Source of the DNA: an uncultured virus (IMG/VR IMGVR_UViG_3300041405_000400)
Taxonomy: Duplodnaviria; Heunggongvirae; Uroviricota; Caudoviricetes
IMG/VR virus record: IMGVR_UViG_3300041405_000400
DNA: 64,000 bases
Direction: 5' to 3' (one strand)
Shown one piece after another: positions 7,184 through 62,799 of the stretch (positions are counted from its first letter, which is position 1; each line of letters starts with the position of its first letter). The position numbers were made by a program, and so were the translations under genes. The notes under the pieces were generated by a model that saw nothing but the letters and a program-made list of their open reading frames with translations, did not search any database and was not told where the DNA came from.

Positions 7184-7222
7184 ATTATACGTAAGCCTTG
7201 TCTTCGTGTCAATATCATTGAC
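7184..7222 (-). promoter_or_regulatory. sigma70 promoter with GTCA-N7-TGAC palindrome
   Basis: TTGACA-N17-TATAAT; plus strand GTCAATATCATTGAC at 7208-7222. Confidence 0.9.
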
Positions 7223-7250
7223 TTCGATAATTAATTGAAAAATATCGTAC

Positions 7251-8093
7251 CTAAAGGGTTGCTGGTTTGTACTTTTTATCAAACCGCTGCAAGTGCTCGT
7301 GCATGCGCCGACGCTCAGCATCGACCTGCTGGCAGGCCTGTGGCAGTCTTTTGCCAACAAACGCCTCATGCATCAGTTCAGGCGCAGGCAGAGCCTTCAG
7401 GAAGTCGATTCCCCATTTGCAATAAAGCATGCGCCCTTCGTTGCCCAGGCAAAGTCCAATGATGGACTCACACAGTTTTGAGGTGTTCTTTGACCAGCCC
7501 TCTGCCTCCAGTATTTCGGTCAGGTAGGCACGAACAAACCGGACGCACAAGGTAATGCGGTTCAGCTCATTACGCTTGTCGGCCTTGTAGGGGGCGTAGA
7601 AATTGTGAAGGCGCGAGCGCAGGCACAGGATTGGGTTGATAACCGGCACTTGAATTCCCCTCATCGGCAGCAGCTCAATGCCATCAAGGATCTCTTTGCG
7701 ATCAAGGCCACCGACTTCGTGCAGGATATCAATGATCACTTCGCGGCCAGTCTTGTCTATGACGCAGGTGGTCATGGCCAAATTGACGGTGATATCGAAG
7801 TTCTGCGGGCGCTTGAAAGGAATGCCGAGCTTTGACTCGCAGAATTCGATGGAGCTTTTCACACCATAAAAATCGAGGTCGTCACTGTAGGCAGCCTGGA
7901 ACTCGACAGCGCGCTTTTCAGTCAGCAAGTACCGGGCGTACCAAAAAGCCAGGGCCTGTCCACCGACGACAATCAGTTGGTGATTGTTCACCACATCCAC
8001 TATGTCCGCGTCCTTGTAAATGCTTTCCACAAGGTCTTGGAAGTCCTGGAAATTGGCGAGGTAGTCAGTTTCGTCGAGTAGATCCCGACTCAT
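7251..8093 (-). CDS. Pol-beta-superfamily nucleotidyltransferase-like protein (possible toxin)
   Basis: IVVGGQALAFW and SDDLDFY motifs, later IDIL; helical C-terminus. Confidence 0.7.
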   Translation of the reverse strand: MSRDLLDETDYLANFQDFQDLVESIYKDADIVDVVNNHQLIVVGGQALAFWYARYLLTEKRAVEFQAAYSDDLDFYGVKSSIEFCESKLGIPFKRPQNFDITVNLAMTTCVIDKTGREVIIDILHEVGGLDRKEILDGIELLPMRGIQVPVINPILCLRSRLHNFYAPYKADKRNELNRITLCVRFVRAYLTEILEAEGWSKNTSKLCESIIGLCLGNEGRMLYCKWGIDFLKALPAPELMHEAFVGKRLPQACQQVDAERRRMHEHLQRFDKKYKPATL

Positions 8094-8293
8094 GCATGAC
8101 TACCGAAAACGAAGCGCTTGCTCTTTCCGAACTCAGAGGCAATGCGCTGACACGCAGCGCTGGAGCGCTCGTTGATGGCTTCGCGTTCTTCGTCGCTCAG
8201 GTTGCGCAGGCTTTCGAACTTTCGCTCCCCTTCCGACTGCTTGTGAGCCATCAGTTGGGCGAAGCTGGAGGATTCTACTTGTCGAAGCTGCAT
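8090..8293 (-). CDS. small helical protein coupled to the nucleotidyltransferase (possible antitoxin)
   Basis: ATGA overlap with the downstream gene; AGGTG RBS. Confidence 0.65.
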   Translation of the reverse strand: MQLRQVESSSFAQLMAHKQSEGERKFESLRNLSDEEREAINERSSAACQRIASEFGKSKRFVFGSHA

Positions 8294-8402
8294 AAGTCAC
8301 CTGATCAGCCAGTAGGTTTCGATATACGAAGAATACCAAAAGGTGGAGCAAAACACAAGGAACGCTTGATTTAGAGCCGTTCCTCGTGTACGGATTTGCT
8401 TA

Positions 8403-8999
8403 TCAAGCGGCCAGAAGCTGCTCGAATCGAACTTGATAAAACCCGCGAAAAACGCCACTGTTTCCAAAAGTGCGCTCAGTGCGAACGACCTTCTGACCTG
8501 TCATGTTTTCGAATTTCAGCACCACCTCATCGTAGTGGGCCTGAAGTTGGGCGAGGTTTGATTTGTAATCGTGGGCAATATTTCCCTTATCGACTTCGGC
8601 CTGGATATCGAAAATGCCACGAGAGACTTCGGCCAAATAGGTCGAAAGGGCCTTCATTTCGAAATTGACGACGCCTCGCTCCATTTCGGCCTTAAGGTGA
8701 TCATCGCTTTTGATGTCACGCTCGACGGACATGTTCAGACCATTGGCGCGTGGATACTGGTTATGCCAGACGTTGCCCTCTGCATCAGCAAAGATGAAGC
8801 CGTCTTCGTTTTTTACGTCACCTGCCTCACCAGCTACCTTGTGGTGCTCCTTGCAGGTCAGCATCAGGATGTCGATGCCAACGAGCTTGTGCTCCCAGGG
8901 ATAATAGGTAAAAAAGCCGATTCCATCGGCGGTGCTGAAATTGCCTCTCTCAAATTTCACATGCACGAAAGGAACCTGACTGCCCACTTCAAAACGCAT
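8403..8999 (-). CDS. hypothetical protein, paralogue of 35068..35673
   Basis: Shared RFEVG, PWEHKL and WHNQYP motifs. Confidence 0.8.
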   Translation of the reverse strand: MRFEVGSQVPFVHVKFERGNFSTADGIGFFTYYPWEHKLVGIDILMLTCKEHHKVAGEAGDVKNEDGFIFADAEGNVWHNQYPRANGLNMSVERDIKSDDHLKAEMERGVVNFEMKALSTYLAEVSRGIFDIQAEVDKGNIAHDYKSNLAQLQAHYDEVVLKFENMTGQKVVRTERTFGNSGVFRGFYQVRFEQLLAA

Positions 9000-9029
9000 T
9001 GGAATGACCCTACTGAATGATTTGGTTGA

Positions 9030-9068
9030 ATTATAGTCATTCCATTCGAATTTGTCAACATGATTGAC
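9030..9068 (-). promoter_or_regulatory. sigma70 promoter with palindrome
   Basis: TTGACA-N17-TATAAT; GTCAACATGATTGAC at 9054-9068. Confidence 0.88.
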
Positions 9069-9350
9069 TTCCTTGGCCTCGCACTTGAGCTATACCACAC
9101 GATACGAGACTGTAATCTGAGTAAAAGATGAAAAGACGGAGTTTCCGCCGTCTCTTTTCTGACATTAAGACCGCGTATGGGCTGACATCAGTTCTTCAAA
9201 CACCGCGTTTGGCCCCATGGCAATGACACTTGTGATTGTTGACTCTTCAACACCAGCATTGCGCAACATGCGTTCATTACAAGCCTGGGTTGACCTCTTT
9301 GAACATGGGTGCGCATTAAAAACCCAGCCATCAGCTAGGTTTTTACTTAC

Positions 9351-10387: not shown

Positions 10388-10870
10388 TCAGGCCTGAGCC
10401 TGGGTATCTGGCTGCGTTTTTGCAGCGGCTTTAAGTTGTTCGTGCAGATCCGGGTTACGGTGGGCGGGCTCAATTTGAAACACAGTGCCTTGTCCGTGCA
10501 TGGTAAAAACGTGCAAACCGCCTTTAAGATGCACGTAGTACTCAAAAGGCTCATCTAGGATCGGGTTGTCCAAGCGAGCGTCAACACCAAACGTAGTGTC
10601 GCTCATGGCATTGATGAACTGATCGAGGATTTCTTGGGACAAATCATCCCAGCCAAAACTCTCTAGCAACTCTTCATGGGCATAGGTGACATCACTGCAA
10701 GTGAAGCCAATTTTTGCCTGCGCAATATCGCGGATCATTCGTTGGCAAGTCTCGGAATGATAAAAGTTCTCCAGATTCTGTGTTTTATCGATCTGGTTTT
10801 GCCAAAACCTTTCCACAACATGAGGACTGATGGCGTTCAAAATGCGACTAACTCGGTCATTCAATTTCAT
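10388..10870 (-). CDS. hypothetical protein, paralogue family B
   Basis: CQRMIRDI..FGWDDL..GLHVFTMHGQGT shared with 41654 and 42067. Confidence 0.75.
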   Translation of the reverse strand: MKLNDRVSRILNAISPHVVERFWQNQIDKTQNLENFYHSETCQRMIRDIAQAKIGFTCSDVTYAHEELLESFGWDDLSQEILDQFINAMSDTTFGVDARLDNPILDEPFEYYVHLKGGLHVFTMHGQGTVFQIEPAHRNPDLHEQLKAAAKTQPDTQAQA

Positions 10871-10926
10871 GGCGCCATCCAAAGATTGATAGTGTTTTGC
10901 ATAAAAGGCATTTGGGTAATGCGCTG

Positions 10927-10965
10927 AGTATAACTAACGCACGCAACAATGTCAATGGCACTGAC
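10927..10965 (-). promoter_or_regulatory. sigma70 promoter with palindrome
   Basis: TTGACA-N17-TATACT; GTCAATGGCACTGAC at 10951-10965. Confidence 0.87.
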
Positions 10966-12987: not shown

Positions 12988-13026
12988 ATTATACGTGACT
13001 GAAATTCAATTGTCAATGGTGCTGAC
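12988..13026 (-). promoter_or_regulatory. sigma70 promoter with palindrome
   Basis: TTGACA-N17-TATAAT; GTCAATGGTGCTGAC at 13012-13026. Confidence 0.88.
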
Positions 13027-13617
13027 TTAGCCCTCGAAGCGCCATTTCCGTTGCGAGACCAAACCCAAGGCTGCTTTCAGACAATCTGAAAAAGAAAAGA
13101 TTTTCGTCATTTTGTAATGGAAGGCGTCCACATTCAAAACATTGGATTGCAGGCCTTCGGGATCATAAAAGTTATAAAGTTCTCGAATTCCGATGCGGGT
13201 CAGTTTGTGATTTTCTATAACGCCAAAATAGCTCCATCGATTGAGCATGATGTTGTATGAGCCACCATATTCTACATCACATGTGAACTTTCTTTGGCAA
13301 AAAGCCAGTGGCTCCACTTCAGGGCCTGGATTCTCCAGAGTTGTCTTGAACCAAAGGAGGGCCTTAATTTGCAACTCTTTGTCGAGTCTGGAAAAGTGTT
13401 TTAGGCCTTCATTGAAGTAGTAATCGGTCAGCCCGGAAAGGATGAGTTCATGACGAGTGAAGTCGCCCTCTTCGCTTTGGATCGCTTTAGCCTTGGCAAT
13501 CAGTTTAGTTGCTCGGCTTCCTGAGATCCGATCTAATACGCTCGCGTAGGTTGGCTCAATGTATGGCTTATGCTCACTGGGCTCATCATCAAAAATTATC
13601 TCAACCCATTCAGTCAT
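13027..13617 (-). CDS. hypothetical protein, paralogue family A
   Basis: SGLTDYYFNEGLKHF..LQIKALLWF; C-terminal AALGL. Confidence 0.75.
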   Translation of the reverse strand: MTEWVEIIFDDEPSEHKPYIEPTYASVLDRISGSRATKLIAKAKAIQSEEGDFTRHELILSGLTDYYFNEGLKHFSRLDKELQIKALLWFKTTLENPGPEVEPLAFCQRKFTCDVEYGGSYNIMLNRWSYFGVIENHKLTRIGIRELYNFYDPEGLQSNVLNVDAFHYKMTKIFSFSDCLKAALGLVSQRKWRFEG

Positions 13618-14424: not shown

Positions 14425-15207
14425 TTAAGCAGCCAGCTCTTCAAATGTGTACAGGTGAACAACACCAGTTTTACAAATTCCGTGATCAATCAGGCGATTA
14501 TTGCCGATCTTGATCGCGCCCTTATCTTCTACGAACACTATGTTATGCCCGCAAATGACCAATGGTGCCCCTTCAGTTCCCAGATCATCAAGATTCGCCT
14601 CGGGGCCTCTGGCCTTGCGAGTACTCACCTTGGTTCGGCCCCATACCGCAGAGTCGAGCATGTGATGGGTTTCATCGTCCAGGCTGTACACGAAGTCATC
14701 TGGCAGTGTTTCAAGCTGATCGCGCAATTCACTCCACGTGTAGTCTGGGTCTACCTCCGCATGAATCAAACCGGCAAGCATGTTGCCCTGCTCATCTTGA
14801 TATTCAATGGCCAGCGGCATATGGGCAAAGGTTTCTACGATGCGCTTCAGCTCATGATCAGTTTGACCCAACAGCCAAGTCCCGCCATTTCTCACGCAGG
14901 TTCTTGCATCTGCTGACTTGTTGATCTTGGCGTCATCGCCAGACAGCAGAAGCTCAGCCGTTTTGAACACAAAAGCACAGTGGTTACCCTGAAGGCTTAT
15001 AAACCAGCTCTCTTCCAGAAAATCCGCCGCCCGGTGACTTTCTGGGCCGCGATCTGTCAGGTCACCCAGGCAAATCAGACGATCTGTCTTTTTGTTAAAC
15101 CCTGCGGCTTCCAGCGCTTTTTCAACGAGCGTAAAACAGCCGTGGATATCGCCAATAAAGTAGTCGATGCCAAATAGATTGCGTTTCAGATAGAGGATTT
15201 TGCTCAT
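14425..15207 (-). CDS. metallophosphoesterase, PphA/lambda-type Ser/Thr protein phosphatase
   Basis: GDIHG, GDLTDRGPES, GNH, HA, GH motifs. Confidence 0.92.
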   Translation of the reverse strand: MSKILYLKRNLFGIDYFIGDIHGCFTLVEKALEAAGFNKKTDRLICLGDLTDRGPESHRAADFLEESWFISLQGNHCAFVFKTAELLLSGDDAKINKSADARTCVRNGGTWLLGQTDHELKRIVETFAHMPLAIEYQDEQGNMLAGLIHAEVDPDYTWSELRDQLETLPDDFVYSLDDETHHMLDSAVWGRTKVSTRKARGPEANLDDLGTEGAPLVICGHNIVFVEDKGAIKIGNNRLIDHGICKTGVVHLYTFEELAA

Positions 15208-15230: not shown

Positions 15231-15268
15231 ATTATACCGGCCAATCAATTGGTGTCAATACCATTGGC
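15231..15268 (-). promoter_or_regulatory. sigma70 promoter with near-palindrome
   Basis: TTGACA-N16-TATAAT; GTCAATACCATTGGC. Confidence 0.8.
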
Positions 15269-18455: not shown

Positions 18456-18494
18456 AGTATACCTAGATCTAGACCACATGTCAATGCCATTGAC
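18456..18494 (-). promoter_or_regulatory. sigma70 promoter with palindrome
   Basis: TTGACA-N17-TATACT; GTCAATGCCATTGAC at 18480-18494. Confidence 0.9.
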
Positions 18495-19952: not shown

Positions 19953-19991
19953 ATTATAAGGACACCTACCACAATTGTCAATGTCAATGAC
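19953..19991 (-). promoter_or_regulatory. sigma70 promoter with palindrome
   Basis: TTGACA-N17-TATAAT; GTCAATGTCAATGAC at 19977-19991. Confidence 0.88.
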
Positions 19992-26045: not shown

Positions 26046-26084
26046 ATTATGACCACACCTCATAGCAATGTCAATATCACTGAC
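26046..26084 (-). promoter_or_regulatory. sigma70 promoter with palindrome
   Basis: TTGACA-N17-CATAAT; GTCAATATCACTGAC at 26070-26084. Confidence 0.87.
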
Positions 26085-28189: not shown

Positions 28190-28227
28190 ATTATACCAGA
28201 AGATAGACTTTTGTCAATGGCAATGAC
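28190..28227 (-). promoter_or_regulatory. sigma70 promoter with palindrome
   Basis: TTGACA-N16-TATAAT; GTCAATGGCAATGAC at 28213-28227. Confidence 0.85.
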
Positions 28228-33416: not shown

Positions 33417-33455
33417 ATTATAATAAACCCGGACATTAAAGTCAATGTTATTTAC
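33417..33455 (-). promoter_or_regulatory. sigma70 promoter with near-palindrome
   Basis: TTGACT-N17-TATAAT; GTCAATGTTATTTAC. Confidence 0.8.
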
Positions 33456-40583: not shown

Positions 40584-40622
40584 ATGATAGCCATTCTTTT
40601 TACAATTGTCAATCACAATGAC
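40584..40622 (-). promoter_or_regulatory. sigma70 promoter with palindrome
   Basis: TTGACA-N17-TATCAT; GTCAATCACAATGAC at 40608-40622. Confidence 0.87.
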
Positions 40623-41475: not shown

Positions 41476-41514
41476 AGTGTAGCATCGAAGTGACTAATTG
41501 TCAATTTGAATGAC
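41476..41514 (-). promoter_or_regulatory. sigma70 promoter with palindrome
   Basis: TTGACA-N17-TACACT; GTCAATTTGAATGAC at 41500-41514. Confidence 0.82.
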
Positions 41515-42605: not shown

Positions 42606-42644
42606 ATCATATCAGAACAAGACATCAGTGTCAATACTATTGAC
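42606..42644 (-). promoter_or_regulatory. sigma70 promoter with palindrome
   Basis: TTGACA-N17-TATGAT; GTCAATACTATTGAC at 42630-42644. Confidence 0.88.
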
Positions 42645-45106: not shown

Positions 45107-45145
45107 ATTATAGGGCTCAGTCGTATATGCGTCAACCATAATGAC
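45107..45145 (-). promoter_or_regulatory. orn promoter with palindrome
   Basis: TTGACG-N17-TATAAT; GTCAACCATAATGAC at 45131-45145. Confidence 0.85.
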
Positions 45146-49776: not shown

Positions 49777-49815
49777 ATTATACTAGTGTCACGACGTATT
49801 GTCAATGCATTTGAC
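49777..49815 (-). promoter_or_regulatory. sigma70 promoter with palindrome
   Basis: TTGACA-N17-TATAAT; GTCAATGCATTTGAC at 49801-49815. Confidence 0.88.
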
Positions 49816-50496: not shown

Positions 50497-50535
50497 ACTA
50501 TGGCAACAACATTCCGTTTTGTCAATATTATTGAA
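50497..50535 (-). promoter_or_regulatory. sigma70 promoter with near-palindrome
   Basis: TTGACA-N17-CATAGT; GTCAATATTATTGAA. Confidence 0.72.
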
Positions 50536-51658: not shown

Positions 51659-51692
51659 CTGGGCGTCTCGATGAATGAATATTTATTGGGTG

Positions 51693-51731
51693 ATTATACT
51701 GATCAAGCACCCAGATGTCAATCACGCTGAC
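51693..51731 (-). promoter_or_regulatory. sigma70 promoter with palindrome
   Basis: TTGACA-N17-TATAAT; GTCAATCACGCTGAC at 51717-51731. Confidence 0.88.
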
Positions 51732-51732
51732 A

Positions 51733-52272: not shown

Positions 52273-52326
52273 AATATCCTCAAATATGGAAAGCGCCCTC
52301 TTGGGCGCTTTATGTTAGCTCTTATT

Positions 52327-53496
52327 TTATAGGCCCATGAAGCAGAGCATTATGAAGGTCATAAAGAGCACAAAGTGCGTCATACCTTCGATGGCATTCG
52401 TTTCGCCATCACTAACGTTCATGCCTGCTACTACCAAGGTTACAGCGAGCATCAGCCCTTGAGCGGGACTAAGCGCCATATTAATATCTTGATTATTGAT
52501 AAGTGCAATAACCTCAATAACCGGCACTGTTAGGATGACTGTACACAGGGATGCACCGAGTGCCAAGTTTATCACGACTTGAAATTGGTTTTTCATTGCT
52601 GCACGCATGGCGGTCAACAACTCAGGACTGGCGGAGATACCTGCAACGACCAGAGCAGAAACAATAGGAGGCAGGCCTGTTCCTTCAATACTAACACCCA
52701 TTGTTTTGGCCATTATTTCTGCAAGAACGCCTGTCCAAATTACACCCACTCCGATCATGAATATTGAAAGTTTTGTACTTTCGTACTCGGAATCATCAGG
52801 ACTATCTTCGATTTTTTCGCCAATGAATTTTGCATGCTCTGCTCGTTTCTTTGCCTCATGTTTTTCATAGCTGTAATGAAAGAAATAGCTATGTTCTTTT
52901 GTTTGGAGCCTTAGAAATAGGGCATACAGCAAGACCATCGTACAGATAGTGAATACTGAATATGCCTTCCATTGACCGCCTGGAATGAATGCTGGAACAG
53001 CCATTGAAACTGTAACTGCGGTAATAATCATGACAACGTAAACACGACCGGAATCATGGTTATAGATTTGTTCTCCATGTTTAAGCCCGCCAACTAGCGC
53101 TGCAATACCCATGAGAGCATTCGTATCCACCATCACCGCTGAAAAAATAACATCGCGAGCCAACGTAGGTGATGGAGAATGCTGCATAACGATTGCCAAA
53201 ATGACAACTTCGACCAGCACTGCGGCAAGGGTCAAAATCATGGTTCCGTAGGGGTCTCCTACTTTTTCAGCAAGCACTTCGGCGTGGTGTGCAATCCGAA
53301 CTGGTGTAGCAATAATCGCGCCGACCAAGACGATTGTAGCTATCCCCGAAAATACCTTTCCATGGCTGATCAGCATATGCTCCATCGGATATGCGATCAG
53401 TGCCAATAGCGCGGATAGAATAATCAACTTCTCATTGATGATTCGTTGATAAATCGATGGTGCTACCCCCAGGATAGGGGTGTTGGCGGTATGCAT
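52327..53496 (-). CDS. chaA: Ca2+/H+ antiporter (CaCA family)
   Basis: About 11 TM segments; HAEVLAEKVGDPYGTMILTLAAVLVEV, LVGGLKHGEQ, SPE, NLALGA, GETNAIEG. Confidence 0.93.
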   Translation of the reverse strand: MHTANTPILGVAPSIYQRIINEKLIILSALLALIAYPMEHMLISHGKVFSGIATIVLVGAIIATPVRIAHHAEVLAEKVGDPYGTMILTLAAVLVEVVILAIVMQHSPSPTLARDVIFSAVMVDTNALMGIAALVGGLKHGEQIYNHDSGRVYVVMIITAVTVSMAVPAFIPGGQWKAYSVFTICTMVLLYALFLRLQTKEHSYFFHYSYEKHEAKKRAEHAKFIGEKIEDSPDDSEYESTKLSIFMIGVGVIWTGVLAEIMAKTMGVSIEGTGLPPIVSALVVAGISASPELLTAMRAAMKNQFQVVINLALGASLCTVILTVPVIEVIALINNQDINMALSPAQGLMLAVTLVVAGMNVSDGETNAIEGMTHFVLFMTFIMLCFMGL

Positions 53497-53519
53497 TTTA
53501 TGTCCTTTGTGTTGGATGC

Positions 53520-54560
53520 TTACTTGGATTTTGTGTTTTCGTATGCGGTTTTGATGTCTGCAACAATCGTGTCTTGATCGGTGTTCATGACATAGCCTTC
53601 AAATTCACTCTTTGAAGCAAATCGCGCTTTGAATTGGGTGATGAAATCACCCAGCTCCTTGCGCTCATAGCCAGTGATCTCACTGATCAGATGGCCATTG
53701 AATTTTTGCTGGCAGTCCTTCTGGCGTTGAATATCCGAAAAGATCGCGTCAAACTCAACCCTGGCAGCCGGGAATAGCTGCCACAGGTTTTCCCTCAGCG
53801 CCTGACTGTAGGGAAACCAGTTAAAGCGCTTGTGTTTTTCCGGGTGAGCATCCACCCATTCAATGAAATTCATGTAGCCTGGGCGCTTGAGAACGCCTTT
53901 GCGGTCGGCCTCGTTCAGGCGATCAAGACTGAAGACTTTAGGGTGAAAGCCTTTCCACTCGGAGAAAAATTCGTAGATTTCTTCAAGGTTGTTGAAGCCT
54001 TGGCTCCAGCGGTCAGCATCCAGGCACAGGTACTCCAGAGCGACTTTGAAGTCTCGGGTGAGCATCACCCTTCCCAGCTTGTTAGTGCCTTGCTTGACGC
54101 TGTAGGAAAGCCCATTGATGCCGATGCTTAGGCCCATCCGCGACGTGACTCGCAACAGAATGGTCGATACGTCATTCCACGACAGGTAGCTCACCGCAAA
54201 TTGCAGTGCTTCGTCCTTTACGCAGATCAGATCAAGCTGATAGGCCTTTTCACCGTCGAGCAGTACGCAGTTCGCCATATTGCCGAATTTGCGAAACTCG
54301 ATCTTTTCAACGCCCAGCTCTTTGGCCAGACGATTCACCAGCTTGTCCAGATTGCCACCAAAGCTGTCATGCGGCACTACGACATCGATATCGCCGTGGT
54401 CAGTCTTGTCCCGGCAGCTTGGCACCAGCACCGCTGATTCGGTAGAACCCAAAGACTTCAGGGCCGCGTTGATGGCCTCCAGCGCCTGAGTGGACACACG
54501 CTCGTACGTGGCTTGATCCAGTCGGGAAACGCCGTATTTTTGAAGTGCCTTGCCGCCCAT
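53520..54560 (-). CDS. phage/plasmid-type nucleotidyltransferase (Pol-beta fold)
   Basis: MGGKAL, KTDHGDIDVV, YQLDLI, C-terminal KFNGHLI..TG..G domain; promoter TTGACA-N16-TATAAT at 54593-54620. Confidence 0.8.
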   Translation of the reverse strand: MGGKALQKYGVSRLDQATYERVSTQALEAINAALKSLGSTESAVLVPSCRDKTDHGDIDVVVPHDSFGGNLDKLVNRLAKELGVEKIEFRKFGNMANCVLLDGEKAYQLDLICVKDEALQFAVSYLSWNDVSTILLRVTSRMGLSIGINGLSYSVKQGTNKLGRVMLTRDFKVALEYLCLDADRWSQGFNNLEEIYEFFSEWKGFHPKVFSLDRLNEADRKGVLKRPGYMNFIEWVDAHPEKHKRFNWFPYSQALRENLWQLFPAARVEFDAIFSDIQRQKDCQQKFNGHLISEITGYERKELGDFITQFKARFASKSEFEGYVMNTDQDTIVADIKTAYENTKSK

Positions 54561-54733
54561 TGGGTGACTCCGAATGCTTGATTTAGTCTGCTATTATACC
54601 CCTCCATCATTTTTTGTCAATGCCAAAAACATAATGAATGGGCTGTCAGCGAGCATTTCAAATCAGGAGTTGTCTTTGAATGGGCACATTGAGCAATGTA
54701 CCCCTGTATTCAGCGCTGCCTTTATGATTCCGA

Positions 54734-55840
54734 TCAATCAAACGCCCCGGCGCGATAGAGTCTTTCCAAATTATGGGCTGACCTAAGGTGCTTCTCCGTG
54801 CGATTCAAGAAGCTGCTGATGGAACCATTTCTCAGTGAAAAGCAGCAGTCTGGCCGCACATGACGCTGGGTAAGCATGCTGGTTGAGGTGGTGGTAATCA
54901 ACACCTGGGCAGTTGACTCAAGCGCACGCTGAAAAGTAGACCCAGAGGCTAGATGATGAAGACCATCCATGTCATCGATGAAGATGAACGATGCCTGCTT
55001 GCGCTCTGACTCAGCTGTCTTCATCCAGAAAAAGAAGGTGATCAGCGTCCTTACCCCAACTGACGTGTTGCGCAGCAAATTCATGGTTTGGTTGCCGATT
55101 CGCTGCCCTATGAATGCTTCGCCGTCCAAATTTTCTGCGGTCAAGCGGTAGCTCAGCCCGCACTCACCCAGGAACGAGACTAGCTCATCGAGCCAGCCAT
55201 TTTTCAGGATAGCGGCGCCAAGGTCTCTTTTCCCCTGGGTAAACCCAATGTAAGAATTGACATCGACCGCGCTGAAATACAGCATATTTTCTACGGAGCT
55301 GATAAATTTCTTAAAGCATTCATTCGCTGGGTTTTTTTCGAGCAGCGAGTTTTTGTGAATGTATGAGGCGATTGAAATGGTAGAGCTGGAAAGATCTCGC
55401 TTCAAGTGCTCGGCACCATCTGCGAGGATGGTGGCGTTTCCACCAAAACGGCGATCAACTTCCGCGTAAAGGCCCCCATCGATTATTATGCGTTCGTACA
55501 CGAGATCTCCTGATGCTGAACGAGCGTACGCATAGGTCAGATCCTGGTGATCAAATCGGAATTGATAGGTGAATTCCATCATCTCAGTCCCACTGCCGAG
55601 GCTCATGTCAGAATCGTGGCTGCCAATTACGTGACTATTCGTAAGGTGGCGAGTCAGGTCGAAAATCGCCATTCCCAAAGCGGTTTTTCCTGCACCTGAG
55701 TTGGCGAGGACAATGCCAGTCTTCACCAGCCGATTCGTAACCGACGCCTCGCTGAAATCTTGGCGACCCACAGCGCCGAAGTCCAAAAACAACATTTCAT
55801 CAAAGCATCGAAATCCGGTCACGCTGAAATAATGGAGCAT
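54734..55840 (-). CDS. AAA_21/RloA-like ABC-type ATPase (divergent)
   Basis: GFRCF, ANSGAGKT, SVG, IFIDDMD, QVLITTTS, RPD, NLERLYRAGAF. Confidence 0.8.
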   Translation of the reverse strand: MLHYFSVTGFRCFDEMLFLDFGAVGRQDFSEASVTNRLVKTGIVLANSGAGKTALGMAIFDLTRHLTNSHVIGSHDSDMSLGSGTEMMEFTYQFRFDHQDLTYAYARSASGDLVYERIIIDGGLYAEVDRRFGGNATILADGAEHLKRDLSSSTISIASYIHKNSLLEKNPANECFKKFISSVENMLYFSAVDVNSYIGFTQGKRDLGAAILKNGWLDELVSFLGECGLSYRLTAENLDGEAFIGQRIGNQTMNLLRNTSVGVRTLITFFFWMKTAESERKQASFIFIDDMDGLHHLASGSTFQRALESTAQVLITTTSTSMLTQRHVRPDCCFSLRNGSISSFLNRTEKHLRSAHNLERLYRAGAFD

Positions 55841-55884
55841 AGCTAGATTCTCAAGATTTTATGGCATTCAAAAAGTGTTGCCTT

Positions 55885-55924
55885 ATGGTACGCATCCAAA
55901 TGACACATTGTCAATGTTATTGAC
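55885..55924 (-). promoter_or_regulatory. sigma70 promoter with palindrome
   Basis: TTGACA-N18-TACCAT; GTCAATGTTATTGAC at 55910-55924. Confidence 0.8.
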
Positions 55925-55963
55925 TGCATTTGAACTCTAGGTTTTTGGAAGGCTGCTGCTGAC

Positions 55964-56767
55964 TCAGGGCTTCCCAGCTCCGTTAATGTAGGTGTCGTAA
56001 GCTGCCAGAAACCCAGGTCGATACTCGGCAACATCGCCTTGTAGGTGGTCTTCAATTGTATCTTGTATCTTGGCATTCCAAAGCATATCGCGATAAGCAT
56101 TGGAAAATTCATAGGCCAAAAACATTCTATTCACACATTTGAATTTTTCAATGTCGTAGATCAATTCGCCAACGCTGGTGATATGGGTGATCGCCACCCT
56201 ATTCCCGTTGATAAGTTCAATGGTTCGAGGCTTAGTTAGCTTCCCAATTTGCAGCCTAACAGGTCTATGCATTTCTTCTTCAGAAAACTCATAACCCCAA
56301 TCATAACGTTGGCCGCTTTTGCTTTTAATTTTATTTATTTCAGAAAATTTGAAGTTCTTTTCAGTTCGTTCCATACCATCAATATCAAACCTGAAGTACT
56401 TCGAGTTATGTTGCTTCTTCTCTACCCAAAATAGTCGATTCACAAGCTCTGCCAAAACAGTTTCATTCCGGTAATTTTTGACATGTTCTACAGTGTCAAA
56501 ATCCGTTAGAAATTCAACCGTGTGCCGTGGATTGTTGAGCCATTCGTTGGTGGGAGTGGTAATCGTTCGGGCATCTACAGGCGAATAGCTACCGGCTTGA
56601 TTGGTCTCAAAACTTAGAATGATCCCGTCTAGTCCGTTATTCTGATAGACATCGTTTTTCTCGGAAGTGTACCAAGTCACCGTTTTTTTGAATGGGTTAC
56701 CATCCTTAAGACTTGTGACTTTAATGGTCGTTGCTGGAGGAATGTCACGTACGTCTGAAATTTTCAT
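55964..56767 (-). CDS. hypothetical protein
   Basis: 267-aa ORF, AT-richer than its neighbours. Confidence 0.75.
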   Translation of the reverse strand: MKISDVRDIPPATTIKVTSLKDGNPFKKTVTWYTSEKNDVYQNNGLDGIILSFETNQAGSYSPVDARTITTPTNEWLNNPRHTVEFLTDFDTVEHVKNYRNETVLAELVNRLFWVEKKQHNSKYFRFDIDGMERTEKNFKFSEINKIKSKSGQRYDWGYEFSEEEMHRPVRLQIGKLTKPRTIELINGNRVAITHITSVGELIYDIEKFKCVNRMFLAYEFSNAYRDMLWNAKIQDTIEDHLQGDVAEYRPGFLAAYDTYINGAGKP

Positions 56768-57065
56768 TGGCGATCCCTGATTAGCAGAAGGGTGCTATCG
56801 ATGGAATATCGAAATGGATTGGACTGTCAGACGATGGGCTGCCGGTGCTTTTCTTCTTATCTGACTTTTTCTTCTGGTTTTTTTCGGAGGCGATTTTGCT
56901 CGACGTGGTGTTGGTGTAATTGCTTGAAGTGCCAGATGGTTCAGGTACATCAAAACCGAAATCAATTTCCATGGTTTGTCTCACTGTGTTATTAGGAATT
57001 CATGTGATTGGGCATGAGTAACGGAGGGCGCAACAATTAATTATTGTGAGCCCCAATACGTGGAC

Positions 57066-57257
57066 TCAGGCATTATCTTTGGATGGGTATTGCTTGTTGA
57101 AGGCGGCAATCATCGCCTCACTGCCCTTCTCAGCTAGCAATTTTCTCGCCCCCAACAAAACTGGATCATCATCCTGGACGACAGAAGGGATCTCAAGCAC
57201 GGTGTAAGGCCCGCGTTGTACGGCCTTGATCATTGCTTTTGGTTCATTATTTTCCAT
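57066..57257 (-). CDS. small hypothetical protein
   Basis: Overlaps the upstream stop. Confidence 0.6.
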   Translation of the reverse strand: MENNEPKAMIKAVQRGPYTVLEIPSVVQDDDPVLLGARKLLAEKGSEAMIAAFNKQYPSKDNA

Positions 57258-57678
57258 AACTGGCCCACGCAGGTTGAATCGCGATGATGGTGTAGTGGCA
57301 ACTCAAGGCGTCACCGATGGAGTGTGAAAATGCGCGCCATCCTTTACGGTTGGAGCCATCGTGATCAGGCTCATCGCCGTAATCGGTTTCTTTCAACCAG
57401 ATTGTCGCCAGTTGTGCTGCGCCAAAAGGATTGATGTCTCGGCCAAGTGGTTCTGAATGCCGGTCTTCATGCCAGAGAAAGATCATGGTAGGCACGCCAT
57501 CGGCGTCCTCAATCAACCGTGTCATGTGATCGTTGGTGGGAATACCGAAGTGTCGGGTCTTCTCCTTGAGCTTGGCATAACGAACGTGAGCCGCTTTGCC
57601 GCCCGTCATGGCCAAGCGGATGACCAATTCAAGTTCTTGGTCGCCGATTGAGGTTACATCGATAGAAAGGTTATCCAA
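57247..57678 (-). CDS. phage-type hypothetical protein
   Basis: EPDHDGSNRKGWRAF..IQPAWASYGK block. Confidence 0.72.
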   Translation of the reverse strand: MDNLSIDVTSIGDQELELVIRLAMTGGKAAHVRYAKLKEKTRHFGIPTNDHMTRLIEDADGVPTMIFLWHEDRHSEPLGRDINPFGAAQLATIWLKETDYGDEPDHDGSNRKGWRAFSHSIGDALSCHYTIIAIQPAWASYGK

Positions 57679-57707
57679 TGGAGCTACCTGTTCAATGTGA
57701 AGAAAAT

Positions 57708-57736
57708 AAAAAAAGACCCGTCAGTGCGGGTCTTTT
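57708..57736 (-). terminator. terminator of ncRNA-4
   Basis: Minus strand AAAAGACCCG-CACTGA-CGGGTCTTTT-TTT. Confidence 0.85.
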
Positions 57737-58260
57737 GGTCGAAGCCTTCCCGCCAGCTTCGTATTTTATCTAACATTCAGTCCTTCAGGCGTCTTAGCGG
57801 CTACGCCACCATTGGATCGGCTGTCGTTCTGGTGTCGCGGGTAACTCTGTTCGCGCATAGAGGCTTTGCCGACTCCGGCTCCGCCTTTGGGTATCGCTAC
57901 TTGAAGCTGATTAGTGCCTCCGACAACCAAGATTCCGGTCTCTCAGTTGTTTTCGAGCTTCGAATTCCACAGGAACATGTGGATTTAATTCGACTGGGGC
58001 GTGACACGCAACAGGTCAAAACCTGCTGGATCATCTCTCTGCTATCCTGCGCACCTTCGACTCACAGGAGTGGTAGTCCCTCTGACCGCATTTGCCAGAG
58101 CCTATCTGCTAAACACATGGAATCATCCAGGTGTTGCTGGTCTGCTAGGTCAGCACAGCGTTGACCTCATTACCACTCCCAGCCGTCGCCATGGAGTTTA
58201 CGACCCTTGGCAGGGATTGACGGCAAAACATCCAGCCATCAACCATCTGTTTCCTGCTTG
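57708..58260 (-). ncRNA. large structured ncRNA-4 (~550 nt), family unknown
   Basis: Own promoter and terminator; no minus-strand ORF of 60 aa or more; many nested helices whose G-U pairs favour the minus strand. Confidence 0.72.
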
Positions 58261-58266
58261 GATTAC

Positions 58267-58295
58267 AATATATCGCTCAGAACATCGCCTGTCAA
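58267..58295 (-). promoter_or_regulatory. sigma70 promoter of ncRNA-4
   Basis: TTGACA-N17-TATATT. Confidence 0.8.
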
Positions 58296-58383
58296 TGTTT
58301 ATGTTTTATTATTTATAAAAATCTGCGATTACGTTGCATCGCGAATAGCGTCTGGTCTTTAACCATGGCGACTGCTTGAACGC

Positions 58384-58737
58384 TTATTTCTTTTCAGGAT
58401 CGCAGAAGCTGGCAACTTCAATGTCATAATCGCCAGTTTTTTCATTTTTGACGATGGATTTCAGATACTGCTGACAATACACAGGTCTGTCGTTCTGGGT
58501 GGAACGGATCTTATACAGCTTCAGACGTTTTCCGGCCACGTCTCCCTCAATAAAAGAGACGTTATTCAGTGCGGGAGCGCTGTTAATTTCTAGCCCTGGG
58601 GTGGCGGGTGCCAATGCAGGTGTTGCTGCTTGAACTTCAGGTGCCTGTCGGTTCTGATGAGCACAGCCGGATAATGTGAGCACCAAAAACGCGGCACTTA
58701 GGATTGTGATTGATTTTGAACTGCGTAAATTTAACAT
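58384..58737 (-). CDS. lipoprotein
   Basis: Lipobox TLSGC; GAGGA RBS. Confidence 0.78.
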   Translation of the reverse strand: MLNLRSSKSITILSAAFLVLTLSGCAHQNRQAPEVQAATPALAPATPGLEINSAPALNNVSFIEGDVAGKRLKLYKIRSTQNDRPVYCQQYLKSIVKNEKTGDYDIEVASFCDPEKK

Positions 58738-58761
58738 CTTTATTCCTCTAAGTTATTTGTA

Positions 58762-59358
58762 CTACATTCCGCTAATTACGAAAAGTGGATCGAAAAATAC
58801 CGTTCTGATTTTGTAATCGATGTGTTCGTCATACAAATGTCCCAAATAGATCGGGCTGATTTGATTGATGACCGTATGCAACTGCTTGATGTGCTCAAGG
58901 CCATTATTTTTTACATCGTCTGGCAATTCCCAGGCAGTCGCGATCTTGATGAACGCTGCTTCTGTTTGGGTTTGATCGCAAAAAAGAGGAATGCCATGAG
59001 TTGACTCAACTATTTGTTTGTTGAGCCAGCTGAAAATATCGGATTGTGATTCCGTGTCAGTATTCGTGGGCTTGGGGTGCTGATACTGAAGCCAGAAGGT
59101 TGAAATCAGGCTACCGTTGTCGATATGCATATCTAGACACAGACTGTATCGCGTATCAAAAAGCGTGATCCCATCACCATCAAAGCGATCAAGATTTTTA
59201 CTTTCGCCCAAAAACATATCCAAGGTGAAATAGCTGCAACTATCTTCATCCAAATCGGTGGAACTGGTGCCTTTCAGTGAATCAAAAAGCGCTTGATGAT
59301 CATTGATGAGCATTCGAAGATATTGATGTGCAGACATTCTGGACTTCATGTGACCCAC
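58762..59358 (-). CDS. hypothetical protein
   Basis: 198-aa ORF. Confidence 0.65.
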   Translation of the reverse strand: MGHMKSRMSAHQYLRMLINDHQALFDSLKGTSSTDLDEDSCSYFTLDMFLGESKNLDRFDGDGITLFDTRYSLCLDMHIDNGSLISTFWLQYQHPKPTNTDTESQSDIFSWLNKQIVESTHGIPLFCDQTQTEAAFIKIATAWELPDDVKNNGLEHIKQLHTVINQISPIYLGHLYDEHIDYKIRTVFFDPLFVISGM

Positions 59359-59384
59359 CTTGGGTTTTGGTATTTTCGTGGTTA

Positions 59385-59411
59385 CAAAAAAGCCCCATTA
59401 CGGGGCTTTTG
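59385..59411 (-). terminator. intrinsic terminator
   Basis: CAAAAAAGCCCC-ATTAC-GGGGCTTTTG. Confidence 0.8.
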
Positions 59412-59468
59412 GGACGAGCGGCATGTTGTCATGGTGTAGCAGACAGATGCTCGTTCAGCACTGTGTGA

Positions 59469-59768
59469 TCAGGCAGCACTCGACTGGGAGTTTTGAGCAA
59501 AGATTTCACGAACACGACCCACGATGGCCTGAGTGAAATGCTTCAGCGGCTGATCCTTGTAGGCATCTGCCAGCGGCATGCCATCGGCTTCCAGGCCCAG
59601 CGAGACGGACAGGCCGGTGTAGAACTTGCGTTCCTTCTCTTCGGACATGCCGTAGGTGGCTTGCCAGTATTGACGGCCAGCCATGATGTCTTCGACGATG
59701 GTGACTTCTTTTGCTGAGGCGTTGCGGTAAAATTCACTGGCGCGTTGTTTGTCGGCAGCAGATTTCAT
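59469..59768 (-). CDS. hypothetical protein
   Basis: AAGGGA RBS; promoter TTGACA-N17-TATACT at 59894-59922 with a ~120-nt leader. Confidence 0.75.
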   Translation of the reverse strand: MKSAADKQRASEFYRNASAKEVTIVEDIMAGRQYWQATYGMSEEKERKFYTGLSVSLGLEADGMPLADAYKDQPLKHFTQAIVGRVREIFAQNSQSSAA

Positions 59769-59949
59769 GTAGTGTTCCCTTGAGCGGATTCTGTAATGGT
59801 AGCGTCAGGATATTCTGACGCATGATTGGGTAATTCGTTGTCTTCCGATGTCAGCGGGATGGCTCTATCTGCCTTCTCGCCTTTCGTGTTTCTAGTATAT
59901 TAATACCAGGCCACACTGTCAACAGCATATTTCCTATTATTCGATATTA

Positions 59950-60732
59950 TTATTCGACCTCGCCGATCAGTTGTTCGAACGTGTAGAGGATGGCATCTTC
60001 GTTCCGGTACAGGCCGTGATCGATGTAACGGTTATTGGCTACACGAAATGGCCCACCGTCTTGCTGCGGGACAATTGAATGGCCACACACAAGGTACGGA
60101 ATGCCGTCTGTAATGTAAGCATGCGATTCAGCATCCTTATTCAGCTCGGCGGCTTTGATTTTTGTGCGGCCCCATAGGCACTGGTGCAGCAGGTCGCTGT
60201 TTTGAGTGCTTAGAGATGATACAAAGTCCCATGGCAGTTCTTGCAGCATCACTGCCAACTCCGTCCAACTGGAGCCCATAGGCACCTCGCCATGAATGAG
60301 GCCGAGCAGTGGTGTCCCGTCATGATCCTGGTATTCGATGGCAATTGGAAGATACTTGATCGTTTCGATGAAGTCTTCAAGCACTGCTCGTTTCTGATTC
60401 TCGATCCACTCTCCCCCATTGTTGTAGGAGATCCTGGAGTCTTTATCTTCACGGGAGTAATCGTGCATCAACACCTGACGGGCTGCGTGGGAGGTTACGC
60501 AGTCGTGATTACCCTGAACCGCAAGAGCCCACCCCTCCTTAAGCAAGTCCGCGATACGATGGCTCTCTGGGCCTCTATCGCATAAATCCCCTGCCAAAAA
60601 CAGCCGGTCTTTGGATTTATCAAAACCAACACGTTCGAGTGCTTCTTCAATTTTAGTGATACACCCATGCGCATCACCTGACCAGTAATCAGTCCCTTTG
60701 GTGTTGCGTTTCACTTCCATGAATTTCGTCAT
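59950..60732 (-). CDS. metallophosphoesterase, PphA/lambda-type (paralogue of 14425..15207)
   Basis: GDAHG, GDLCDRGPES, GNHD, HG, GHS. Confidence 0.92.
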   Translation of the reverse strand: MTKFMEVKRNTKGTDYWSGDAHGCITKIEEALERVGFDKSKDRLFLAGDLCDRGPESHRIADLLKEGWALAVQGNHDCVTSHAARQVLMHDYSREDKDSRISYNNGGEWIENQKRAVLEDFIETIKYLPIAIEYQDHDGTPLLGLIHGEVPMGSSWTELAVMLQELPWDFVSSLSTQNSDLLHQCLWGRTKIKAAELNKDAESHAYITDGIPYLVCGHSIVPQQDGGPFRVANNRYIDHGLYRNEDAILYTFEQLIGEVE

Positions 60733-61300: not shown

Positions 61301-61798
61301 TTAAATGTAATTGAATGTTTTTAGTGCGTAGACGGCGGAAGCGATTGGAACAAGCAGCACGCACGCCTCGATCAAACGAAAGCCAAAGACCTGCGATTTT
61401 TGTACGTCAACAATTTGCTTCATGAGTGAAGGTGTCCACTCAAGCAAATTTCTTTTGTGCTCTTCCAGGTACTCGCTCGCTTCACGGGCTTGGGCCTCAG
61501 TCCCCGTGCGCTGTGTAGAGCAGATCGAGATGGTGGCGCTGGCGCGATAATAGTGCCAGAAAAAAAGCACTACTTTTGTGTTCAATGTATGATCGCTAAA
61601 GGCGTTGGCGCGATACCTTTTGCCTGTTTCGAATACATATTCCCAGGCACCGAAAAGGTTGCGGCGCCACGGAGACTGAAGCACGGTGCTGCATTCGATT
61701 CTCTGCCCCTCCGGCACCACCAGAGGGTCTTCATGCGTGACGAGACGTGCTTCGCTCTTTTTCCAAAATACAACTGTATCGGGCGCGCTTTGCGTCAT
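61301..61798 (-). CDS. C-terminally anchored membrane protein
   Basis: C-terminal hydrophobic helix. Confidence 0.65.
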   Translation of the reverse strand: MTQSAPDTVVFWKKSEARLVTHEDPLVVPEGQRIECSTVLQSPWRRNLFGAWEYVFETGKRYRANAFSDHTLNTKVVLFFWHYYRASATISICSTQRTGTEAQAREASEYLEEHKRNLLEWTPSLMKQIVDVQKSQVFGFRLIEACVLLVPIASAVYALKTFNYI

Positions 61799-61825
61799 AG
61801 TGAAAAATCCAGGCTGGGCGGCTGA

Positions 61826-62032
61826 TTAAGGTTCGTACTTTTGGGTAAAGTCGTTGTTGTCCAGCGCCCATTGAGCGGCTTCGCGGGTTTGGTAGTATTC
61901 TTCCGATTCGCGAGAGCATGGCCCTGAATCATCAAAGGTGCCGATGTAAAAGCCAGCCCCGCTTTCGAGGACTTTGAGCGGTAGCCGCTGTTTCAGGAAT
62001 TCGTAAGCCAGTTTGCCATGAGGAACGTGCAT
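61826..62032 (-). CDS. small conserved plasmid/ICE-type protein
   Basis: LPLKVLESGAGFYIGT..GPCSRESEEYY; GAGGTG RBS. Confidence 0.8.
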   Translation of the reverse strand: MHVPHGKLAYEFLKQRLPLKVLESGAGFYIGTFDDSGPCSRESEEYYQTREAAQWALDNNDFTQKYEP

Positions 62033-62062
62033 GTCGTAAACACCTCAATAATTTATATAGAT

Positions 62063-62101
62063 ATTATACCAAGAAACGCCATCTATGTCAATTGTGCTGA
62101 C
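62063..62101 (-). promoter_or_regulatory. sigma70 promoter with palindrome
   Basis: TTGACA-N17-TATAAT; GTCAATTGTGCTGAC at 62087-62101. Confidence 0.88.
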
Positions 62102-62144
62102 TTGAGTGGCGCTATTTAATGTGCCTTTGTGGCAAACTTGGCGA

Positions 62145-62708
62145 CTACAGCAGGCCTCGGAAGGTCAGGCTGATTCGTGGGCCGCACACAGCAGAGTGCT
62201 TTGGAATGCGGTGCAGATCCAGGTGCTGCATGCCAGCGGGCATTTCCAACAAGCTGCCGGAGGCCAGACTGATCTTCACCACTTCAGCCGCTTCACCTTC
62301 GGGCACACGAGGTGGCCTTGGCTTGAACCACAATTCGCGGACGGCGCCAAAGCTGTACACCAGGATCGGGCGCGAGTGGTCGATGCTTGGGCTATCATCG
62401 GCGTGCCAGCCCAAGTGGTTATGCTGGTTTTCGTACCCATTGATGAACAGCGCTTCAAACTTGCAGCCGTACTGCGCCTCAGCTTGAGCCTGAATGCCTT
62501 TGCAGATCTCATCCCACACCGGATTGGGGGTATACGTCCGTGCGTATGCGCCTTCACCATAGGTATACGGCTCACCCTTGTCGCTGAAGAAGACTTCTTT
62601 GCGCGGTGCTTCGCGCTGTTCCCATGGTAGATTTTTCCACAGGTGATCGAAGATCTCGGCGGCATTGGCAATCGCGTTGGGGGTGTAGATCGGCATCGTG
62701 GGCTTCAT
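62145..62708 (-). CDS. AlkB-family 2OG-Fe(II) dioxygenase
   Basis: NGY..LGWHADD, SFGAVR, GSLLEM..Q..LHRIPK, RISLTFR; start MKPTM lies downstream of the promoter. Confidence 0.92.
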   Translation of the reverse strand: MKPTMPIYTPNAIANAAEIFDHLWKNLPWEQREAPRKEVFFSDKGEPYTYGEGAYARTYTPNPVWDEICKGIQAQAEAQYGCKFEALFINGYENQHNHLGWHADDSPSIDHSRPILVYSFGAVRELWFKPRPPRVPEGEAAEVVKISLASGSLLEMPAGMQHLDLHRIPKHSAVCGPRISLTFRGLL

Positions 62709-62760
62709 GTGTTCATTCCGTTTCTCGTGAGATTCCGTTTGTTGGAGTATCTGAGCGAGG

Positions 62761-62799
62761 ATTATAGCAAGCCTGCGACATTCGGTCAATGTCATTTAC
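62761..62799 (-). promoter_or_regulatory. sigma70 promoter with near-palindrome
   Basis: TTGACC-N17-TATAAT; GTCAATGTCATTTAC. Confidence 0.8.

Follow-up and report, generated by a model that had tools for sequence, protein, structure and literature searches.

Results

Palindromic sites and their register

The 64,000-nucleotide stretch of DNA analysed here, hereafter the window, is an IMG/VR record of an uncultured virus placed in the Caudoviricetes (IMGVR_UViG_3300041405_000400) and came from a rhizosphere metagenome. Hypothetical genes made up about 85% of the region, and gene cassettes on its minus strand were headed by predicted sigma-70 promoters in which the -35 box formed one arm of a 15-bp palindrome. 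A preliminary description of this DNA had listed 16 such palindromes and four variants with one mismatch. With expectations taken from 100 dinucleotide-preserving shuffles, the exact-site pattern GTCAANNNNNNTGAC had 22 strand-specific matches compared with 0.53 expected (maximum 3; 0 of 100 shuffles reached 22). Because TTGAC occurred in both arms of six sites, the 22 matches resolved into 16 distinct sites, which were the 16 listed (Table 1). On the minus strand, each site read GTCAnTGnnATTGACA, followed after 16 to 18 bp by a TATAAT-like box. The looser pattern GTCA-N7-TGAC occurred at 19 sites (1.02 expected), and the three additional ones (12007, 24835 and 51584) had neither AT before TGAC nor a -10 box. 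Allowing one mismatch gave 43 matches (4.98 expected). All four listed variants were present, every one on a promoter, with the left arm reading GCCA at 15254, GTAA at 33441, TTCA at 50521 and GTAA at 62785.

Conservation by position was tabulated for 15 of the 16 exact sites (all except 55910). The consensus was a full 15-bp palindrome, GTCAATG-n-CATTGAC, the right arm of which is an extended -35 box; T was found at position 6 in 11/15, G at position 7 in 8/15 and A preceding TTGAC in 13/15, and a perfect copy was present at 18480. Conservation had previously been ascribed to the promoter boxes and the second half-site only; both were conserved, and the unit proved longer than that. Information content did not exceed 0.54 bits per position in the spacer or 0.53 bits upstream of GTCA. 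Flanks and spacers were thus nearly information-free, and the promoters are not copies of one repeat, in agreement with what had been proposed.

The spacing was invariant, as claimed, when examined in promoter-like sites defined independently of the left arm (TTGAC plus a -10 box matching at least 4/6 positions, with A2 and T6). Of 31 such sites on the minus strand, 16 had GTCA at -10 relative to the T of TTGAC; elsewhere in those sites it was seen only at -29, -28 and -4 (one each). The left arm was absent from all 47 minus-strand TTGAC sites outside promoters. Promoters without GTCA retained a degenerate left arm, A/T-A-T-G-n-Y-A before TTGAC (GTAA, GCCA, GTTT etc.); the left-arm match is a gradient rather than two sharp classes.

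Positions 5 and 6 of the left arm varied (A, G or T) and the right arm stayed T-A. The lack of compensatory change between arms argues for recognition of the sequence and not for selection of a hairpin. Predicted RNA folds of the sites were weak (mean -4.65 kcal/mol, range -3.2 to -8.5) and had no U tract. The centres of the GTCA and TGAC cores were separated by 11 bp, roughly one turn of the helix, which is the distance expected for a dimer bound to a single face of the duplex. On the plus strand, TTGAC-N17-19-TAnnnT had 4 matches, all away from palindromes. The six fully palindromic sites had no -10 box when read on the plus strand, and none of the 16 sites had a -10 box in the opposite direction.

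Promoters and gene context

The window had 12 perfect TTGACA-N16-18-TATAAT promoters where 0.01 were expected, and all but one lay on the minus strand; this bears out the earlier characterisation of these promoters as near-consensus. The core match of the 16 palindrome promoters averaged 11.38/12, with 8/16 perfect, compared with a mean of 10.73 for the 15 without palindrome. The spacer was 17 bp in 14/16 palindrome promoters. The distance from the promoter-proximal edge of the palindrome to the start codon was 48 to 84 bases at 15/16 sites and 23 bases at 26070. By -35 box, spacer, -10 box and start-codon distance, the sites qualify as predicted promoters of the sigma-70 type.

At 12/16 exact sites the palindrome began -1 to 43 bp past the upstream stop codon. 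Terminators on the minus strand were few; in the 20 kb scanned, the four strongest candidate stems started at 44448, 45837, 50338 and 57736. Close upstream stop codons together with few terminators suggest that the promoters are boosters inside long co-directional arrays, and with this layout one repressor would control most of the approximately 90 minus-strand open reading frames (ORFs).

A perfect consensus promoter without palindrome was also present on the plus strand (45431; stretches 45394-45460 and 45812-45841), between terminator-like hairpins. It heads a doubtful 96-amino-acid ORF where the region is most variable, and may serve to express a small RNA or a spurious ORF.

Table 1. Palindrome promoters of the window: the 16 exact sites, followed by the four one-mismatch variants. 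Start, first base of the palindrome; span, palindrome and promoter; PEP, phosphoenolpyruvate.
Start	Span	Strand	Palindrome	Promoter	Remarks
7208	7184..7222	-	GTCAATGATATTGAC	TTGACA-17-TATAAT	TTGAC in both arms; heads ORF 6623-7144
9054	9030..9068	-	GTCAATCATGTTGAC	TTGACA-17-TATAAT	heads ORF 8403-8999
10951	10927..10965	-	GTCAGTGCCATTGAC	TTGACA-17-TATACT	heads ORF 10388-10882
13012	12988..13026	-	GTCAGCACCATTGAC	TTGACA-17-TATAAT	adjoins stop codon of upstream ORF 13027-13617
18480	18456..18494	-	GTCAATGGCATTGAC	TTGACA-17-TATACT	perfect palindrome, left arm 7/7; heads ORF 18123-18416
19977	19953..19991	-	GTCATTGACATTGAC	TTGACA-17-TATAAT	heads ORF 19711-19923
26070	26046..26084	-	GTCAGTGATATTGAC	TTGACA-17-CATAAT	
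28213	28190..28227	-	GTCATTGCCATTGAC	TTGACA-16-TATAAT	borders plus-strand cluster 28311-31052 (MvaT/MvaU-like gene)
40608	40584..40622	-	GTCATTGTGATTGAC	TTGACA-17-TATCAT	heads PEP-utilising-enzyme mobile-domain gene 39075-40544
41500	41476..41514	-	GTCATTCAAATTGAC	TTGACA-17-TACACT	third half-site (GTCA at +10, in spacer)
42630	42606..42644	-	GTCAATAGTATTGAC	TTGACA-17-TATGAT	1-base overlap with upstream ORF stop codon
45131	45107..45145	-	GTCATTATGGTTGAC	TTGACG-17-TATAAT	heads RNase T/orn-like gene 44459-45073
49801	49777..49815	-	GTCAAATGCATTGAC	TTGACA-17-TATAAT	heads array from 49743 down to Thg1 gene 47483-48355
51717	51693..51731	-	GTCAGCGTGATTGAC	TTGACA-17-TATAAT	heads ORF 51281-51658
55910	55885..55924	-	GTCAATAACATTGAC	TTGACA-18-TACCAT	GTCA at +10; heads 368-amino-acid ATPase-like gene 54734-55840
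62087	62063..62101	-	GTCAGCACAATTGAC	TTGACA-17-TATAAT	heads ORF 61826-62032
15254	15231..15268	-	GCCAATGGTATTGAC	TTGACA-16-TATAAT	variant; heads Metallophos phosphatase gene 14425-15207
33441	33417..33455	-	GTAAATAACATTGAC	TTGACT-17-TATAAT	variant
50521	50497..50535	-	TTCAATAATATTGAC	TTGACA-17-CATAGT	variant; weakest -10 box of the set
62785	62761..62799	-	GTAAATGACATTGAC	TTGACC-17-TATAAT	variant; upstream of AlkB-like gene (2OG-Fe(II) oxygenase)

Palindromes in host genomes

The host comparison comprised 401 genomes of the genus Pseudomonas, in which the closest MvaT homologues on chromosomes are found; two of them, G547 and G768, are unpublished and were used in this tally only. GTCA-N5-ATTGACA-N16-18-TAnnnT had 0 to 2 matches per genome. 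Frequency of the second half-site at host TTGACA promoters had been set beforehand as a refuting test of the proposed regulon, and these counts did not refute it: host TTGACA promoters do not share the half-site as a feature. Among the matches listed, nearly all were one orthologous promoter before a gene read as ung (uracil-DNA glycosylase). No array of such promoters was found in 401 genomes sampled across the order.

The ung-type promoter (GTCAGATCAATTGACA-17-TAGGGT) was seen at L354 2972-3040 (G374:C1, ~1566969) and in 185 other genomes of the genus, and was not palindromic outside GTCA/TGAC. A palindrome of the mirror type, ATTGACACCATGTCAAT, occurred at L418 2022-2045 (G374:C1, ~4416422) and in about 60 other genomes; it lies in the first codons of a 475-amino-acid gene read as a GntR/MocR-type regulator, and may be the own operator of that regulator. 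The site GTCAATGTGATTGACA with a weak -10 box was conserved in two genomes (L357 and L358; G545:C1, ~1012560, and G462:C54, ~116380), and the stretch beside it has, by impression from its sequence, the look of an island border.

The two highest counts of the order sample, in G154 and G312 (7.0 and 7.4 Mb), were rejected as a host regulon: the matches fall inside repeated paralogous coding sequence, six and two tandemly spaced paralogous genes with GTCAGATGTATTGACA in conserved coding sequence (L342, L343 and L349). The ung promoter, the GntR/MocR site and the G154/G312 repeats gave no pointer to a host protein as reader of the palindrome.

Mirror-image palindromes in plasmid CP136011.1

CP136011.1, a 909,734-bp plasmid of Stutzerimonas stutzeri FeN3W, had about 13 distinct genes in common with the window (17 ORF hits, some in overlapping frames), with 30 to 57% amino-acid identity and no synteny. 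Its promoters read TA-TTGACA, with A at -1 in 74/93, and GTCA stood 10 bases downstream of the T of TTGAC instead of upstream. TTGAC-N5-GTCA had 72 strand-specific matches, compared with 7 to 33 for the other spacings between N1 and N11, and 30 of the 72 had a proper -10 box. TTGAC-N5-GTCAA occurred at 30 distinct sites, with a promoter one way in 22, both ways in 2 and none in 6. The mirror consensus was TATTGACA-N3-TGTCAATA, with the -35 box as the upstream arm at 24 promoters in a palindrome of 15 to 19 bp. The divergent pairs sharing a palindrome were 723450/723464 and 136479/136493. The window-type geometry occurred 19 times in CP136011.1, never with a -10 box. Conversely, the mirror geometry occurred only twice in the window (41504 and 55914; GTCA at +10), with a weaker GTC at +9 to +11 in seven more promoters. 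The -35 box as a palindrome arm is thus common to two distant elements in which the arm placement is opposite, and this implies either that two regulators differ in the geometry of their dimers or that RNA polymerase is itself the reader. The palindrome promoters of CP136011.1 (loci L372-L417) include those of a recA homologue, an RNase H gene, a TerC-family gene and the homologue of the window gene with the PEP-utilising-enzyme mobile domain. The abstract of the FeN3W genome announcement does not mention promoters.

The first 72 residues of a 357-amino-acid ORF of CP136011.1 (471376-472449; L395:11376-12449, plus strand) aligned to region 4 of RpoD/RpoS. Among solved structures, its 27 top matches of 28 were RpoD or RpoS (E from 0.014 upward), and Pfam Sigma70_r4 was matched at E = 0.0099, below its cut-off. 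The motif TRERVRQI within this ORF occurred once in CP136011.1 and was absent from the window, where no homologue of the protein was found. The promoter of the ORF bears a degenerate palindrome, TTGACTAAGCGTCAC.

The element and its relatives

A full-length gene of the MvaT/MvaU silencer family was present at 29477-29857 on the plus strand (NCBIfam NF041859, 149.8 bits, cut-off 75), and its product was 59 to 64% identical to the best chromosomal homologues in the sampled genomes. It sits in a small plus-strand cluster (28311-31052) with promoters that lack the palindrome. This element-borne silencer, in a region of approximately 49% G+C, may itself damp these promoters. Family scans also found a DUF2388 protein; the MvaT/MvaU and DUF2388 families are typical of Pseudomonas. 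The same scans showed SSB, Hsp20, Ham1, two NinI-like phosphatases, two Mrr-type nucleases, a Stealth-family protein, a Lar-like protein, a GNAT acetyltransferase, an RNase T/orn-like protein, Thg1, a Ca/H antiporter-like protein and AlkB, and phage homologues exist for many window genes.

Relatives of the 368-amino-acid ATPase-like protein were found on two contigs, one of 1.06 Mb from JGI (65% identity) and one of 938 kb from Pseudomonas syringae pv. actinidiae (56%), and a homologue of the PEP-domain gene (47%) on plasmid CP136011.1, the G+C content of which was 47.8% compared with approximately 49% in the window. Because of the MvaT/MvaU gene and the homologues on plasmids and contigs of about 0.9 to 1 Mb, the element is plausibly megaplasmid-like, with a host of the Pseudomonas type; the plasmid framing is offered on sequence grounds and without certainty.

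DNA similarity search of phage and plasmid collections returned nothing beyond one 99-bp match to pMPPla107 in distant mode. That plasmid (972 kb) was rejected as a close relative: homologues of Thg1 and the PEP-domain gene were missing, and comparison of a 24-kb stretch and four small loci turned up a single gene in common. It contained 2 window-type palindromes, 5 of the mirror type and 4 perfect consensus promoters. The megaphages LR745206 and LR745208, which have the best Thg1 homologues, were rejected as motif carriers (0 and 3 matches, not above controls). Scans by protein found no relative of the window in IMG/VR or in metagenome contigs. Searches with operator-plus-promoter patterns in IMG/VR, GTDB genome contigs and metagenome contigs gave scattered single matches among the matches listed, with no cluster and none resembling the window. 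Nine IMG/VR viral contigs (L119, L121 and L124-L130) had one nearly identical promoter with a window-type palindrome, GTCAATGTAATTGACA-N17-TATAAT, once per locus within approximately 5 kb on either side; the promoter may be homologous among the members of a single group of phages.

Contigs near-identical or approximately 94% identical to the window were present in other runs, and those of four runs were compared with window positions 40001-60000. A 98.6-kb contig (X3), approximately 94% identical, bridged this region. In X3, 1216 other bases replaced 55901-55929, 29 bp that comprise the palindrome and the -35 box of the 55910 promoter, and 1436 other bases replaced 58302-58367, directly upstream of the 58295 promoter; 45849-46451 was missing. 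The replacements at both promoter edges suggest that cassettes are gained or lost at promoter borders.

Discussion

Operator interpretation

The palindrome GTCAATG-n-CATTGAC is, on balance, probably the operator of one dimeric, sequence-specific DNA-binding protein that acts as a repressor. Symmetry, an 11-bp distance between cores and conservation of sequence instead of pairing argue for such a dimer. If the transcript starts 7 bp past the -10 box, the promoter-proximal half-site would be the extended -35 box at about -37 to -31, and the whole operator, centred near -38, would occupy about -45 to -31. The TGAC portion of the -35 hexamer consists of the bases read by sigma-70 region 4.2. As TGAC, where conservation in the right arm is highest, is made up of those same bases, a bound dimer and RNA polymerase would be mutually exclusive, which points to repression. 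The better core match of the palindrome promoters compared with the rest is the opposite of an activator-dependent design. The repressor would shut at least 16 (20 with the variants) very strong, otherwise constitutive promoters at once, promoters that head co-directional gene arrays in which terminators are few. Affinity would differ from promoter to promoter with the sequence of the left arm, and the regulator would most likely be encoded elsewhere on the element. A burst of expression on entry into a new host, anti-defence roles for the hypothetical genes and an element-wide regulon, all proposed in the preliminary description, would go further than this reading.

Several results weigh against this interpretation. 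No recognisable DNA-binding regulator gene was found in the 64 kb, as had been noted in the preliminary description, in scans with Pfam (127 ORFs, 35 of them a second time with E up to 1), PHROGs (92 ORFs) and NCBIfam (20 ORFs). A 67-amino-acid ORF (8090-8293) with a weak HTH_38 match (E = 0.017) was rejected as the regulator, being unsupported by protein atlas features and by structure search. Nine window promoters also had GTC 9 to 11 bp after TTGAC, which a simple operator of two half-sites does not explain. The mirror geometry of CP136011.1 demands a differently built dimer, or polymerase as the reader, and its true divergent promoter pairs (2/30 sites) keep alive an explanation by polymerase alone.

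Alternative explanations

That last explanation holds the feature to be intrinsic to the promoter, an inverted copy of the -35 box 10 bp away being read by RNA polymerase or sigma-70 itself, and it is regarded as the main rival, if an unlikely one. The second arm might be a second docking site, an insulator against divergent or read-in transcription, or the relic or seed of a bidirectional promoter. It is in fact an inverted -35 box, no regulator was found in the window, and a half-site on the other side of the -35 box in CP136011.1, with 2/30 sites bidirectional, is easiest to accommodate if polymerase does the reading. Opposing this are the 0/16 window sites with an opposite-direction -10 box, the host genomes, which lack the architecture (0 to 2 matches per genome in 401), and the conserved T and G at positions 6 and 7 together with the A before TTGAC, which exceed the hexamer read by sigma-70. 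To our knowledge, GTCA at -45 to -42 is not read by any polymerase contact; that region is where the UP element lies, which is A-rich.

A broader proposal, judged distinctly unlikely, is that megaplasmids of the Pseudomonas type with approximately 48 to 49% G+C carry an element-wide switch, in which the -35 hexamer is half of the operator and the reader is a dimeric plasmid protein with a sigma-70 region 4-like domain competing with host sigma-70 at dozens of consensus promoters. The 357-amino-acid protein of CP136011.1, through its weak match, is a weak candidate for a distantly related reader of TTGACA palindromes; it would be a natural one because it would have the -35-reading helix of sigma-70 itself. 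A cassette would then join or leave the regulon by gain or loss of four bases (GTCA) beside the -35 box, and lineages would differ in dimer geometry, with arms everted in the window and inverted in CP136011.1.

Little probability is given to the palindrome being a cassette border, that is, a structural stem-loop, a short shared homology for cassette exchange, or both, without a dedicated regulator. The model for this is the PeSLs of T4-type phages, of which approximately 50 per genome combine a strong sigma-70 consensus promoter, directly behind the upstream stop codon, with variable-region genes of unknown function; the stem-loops can overlap the -35 box, are stable, often with poly-G then poly-C, act as terminators and vary in sequence and position, and insertions or deletions between close relatives fall at the motifs (excerpts of PMC2839356). 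The layout of the window promoters agrees, with an upstream stop codon (-1 to 43 bp before the palindrome at 12/16 sites), a strong sigma-70 promoter, a Shine-Dalgarno sequence and a start codon in succession, and both joints of more than 1 kb in the ~94%-identical relative map to promoter edges. The window sites differ from PeSLs in having one fixed sequence in a fixed register and no stable, terminating stem-loop: their hairpins are weak, A-T rich and without a U tract, the arm sequence is conserved and its pairing is not, and 15 bp offers little length for homologous exchange. A cassette border and an operator are compatible readings.

A class II activator site that overlaps the -35 box and recruits RNA polymerase, as for CRP, FNR or lambda cI at PRM, is very unlikely: the dyad centre near -38 is close to the -41.5 at which class II sites are centred, and no AT-rich tract resembling a UP element occupies the palindrome position of the palindrome promoters, but their near-perfect cores (mean 11.38/12; 8/16 perfect) need no activation, a half-site on bases read by sigma-70 region 4 would make co-binding sterically unlikely, the FNR-type box TTGAY-N4-RTCAA had 0 matches in the window, and the arms are everted (GTCAA...TTGAC) about a centre near -38 with perfect -35 boxes.

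Comparison with known systems

In its working principle, the proposed operator would by analogy stand closest to plasmid regulons with multiple operators and a global repressor (IncP KorA/KorB, IncN CUP/ArdK). Regulons of the IncP Kor type have the repressor gene on the element, as a rule autoregulated through that same operator. IncP-1 operators are short and symmetric and lie on or beside the core promoter. In the IncP-1 plasmids RK2/RP4, a few plasmid repressors (KorA, KorB, KorC and TrbA) co-control the backbone through repeated operators (excerpts of PMC2665229 and PMC4889941). The window shares with them one short symmetric site at many promoters, overlapping the core promoter, and differs in that one of its half-sites is the -35 hexamer. 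The family scans of the window showed neither a ParB-like nor a KorA-like gene. With the operator consensus taken to be GTTTAGCTAAAC for KorA and TTTAGCSGCTAAA for KorB, KorB operators had 0 matches in the window with up to 2 mismatches and KorA operators had 3 (1.88 expected), which is chance level.

In IncN pKM101 (leading-region CUP/ArdK regulon) and IncW R388 (ArdK), one plasmid protein represses strong promoters of co-directionally arrayed establishment and anti-restriction genes, and these promoters fire on entry. CUP elements are long conserved repeats, whereas the window promoters share only the boxes and a left arm of 4 to 7 bp. The stoperators of cluster A mycobacteriophages are dozens of sites for one repressor distributed genome-wide, one per few kb (excerpts of PMC9283540). 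Each stoperator is an asymmetric site of 13 to 14 bp, bound by a monomer, that stops elongation; stoperators share one orientation with respect to transcription and lie mostly away from promoters. The window sites are symmetric, and all 16 lie on promoters. By sequence or architecture, the window motif is not a member of the IncP, IncN CUP, PeSL or stoperator systems. New with respect to these are the -35 hexamer as a half-site at every member promoter, the unrelated flanks, and a related plasmid with the mirror image. No description of a palindrome-fused -35 motif was found in literature searches that were limited and did not cover supplements.

Implications

In a region of which about 85% is hypothetical genes, the sites serve as markers of likely transcription units and provide a clean bait for the regulator. 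If the operator interpretation is correct, one protein silencing 16 to 20 strong promoters within these 64 kb, and probably many others across the complete element, would be a single handle on the expression timing of dozens of unknown genes. Such a design would be evolutionarily cheap, because the -35 box supplies one half of the operator from the outset and four extra bases recruit a cassette. The two natural operator geometries are available for comparing repressor design, and the mirror image in a distant 910-kb plasmid suggests that this solution recurs among megaplasmids of a class that has been little studied. Silencing of this kind would explain how a host tolerates a very large foreign replicon rich in strong promoters.

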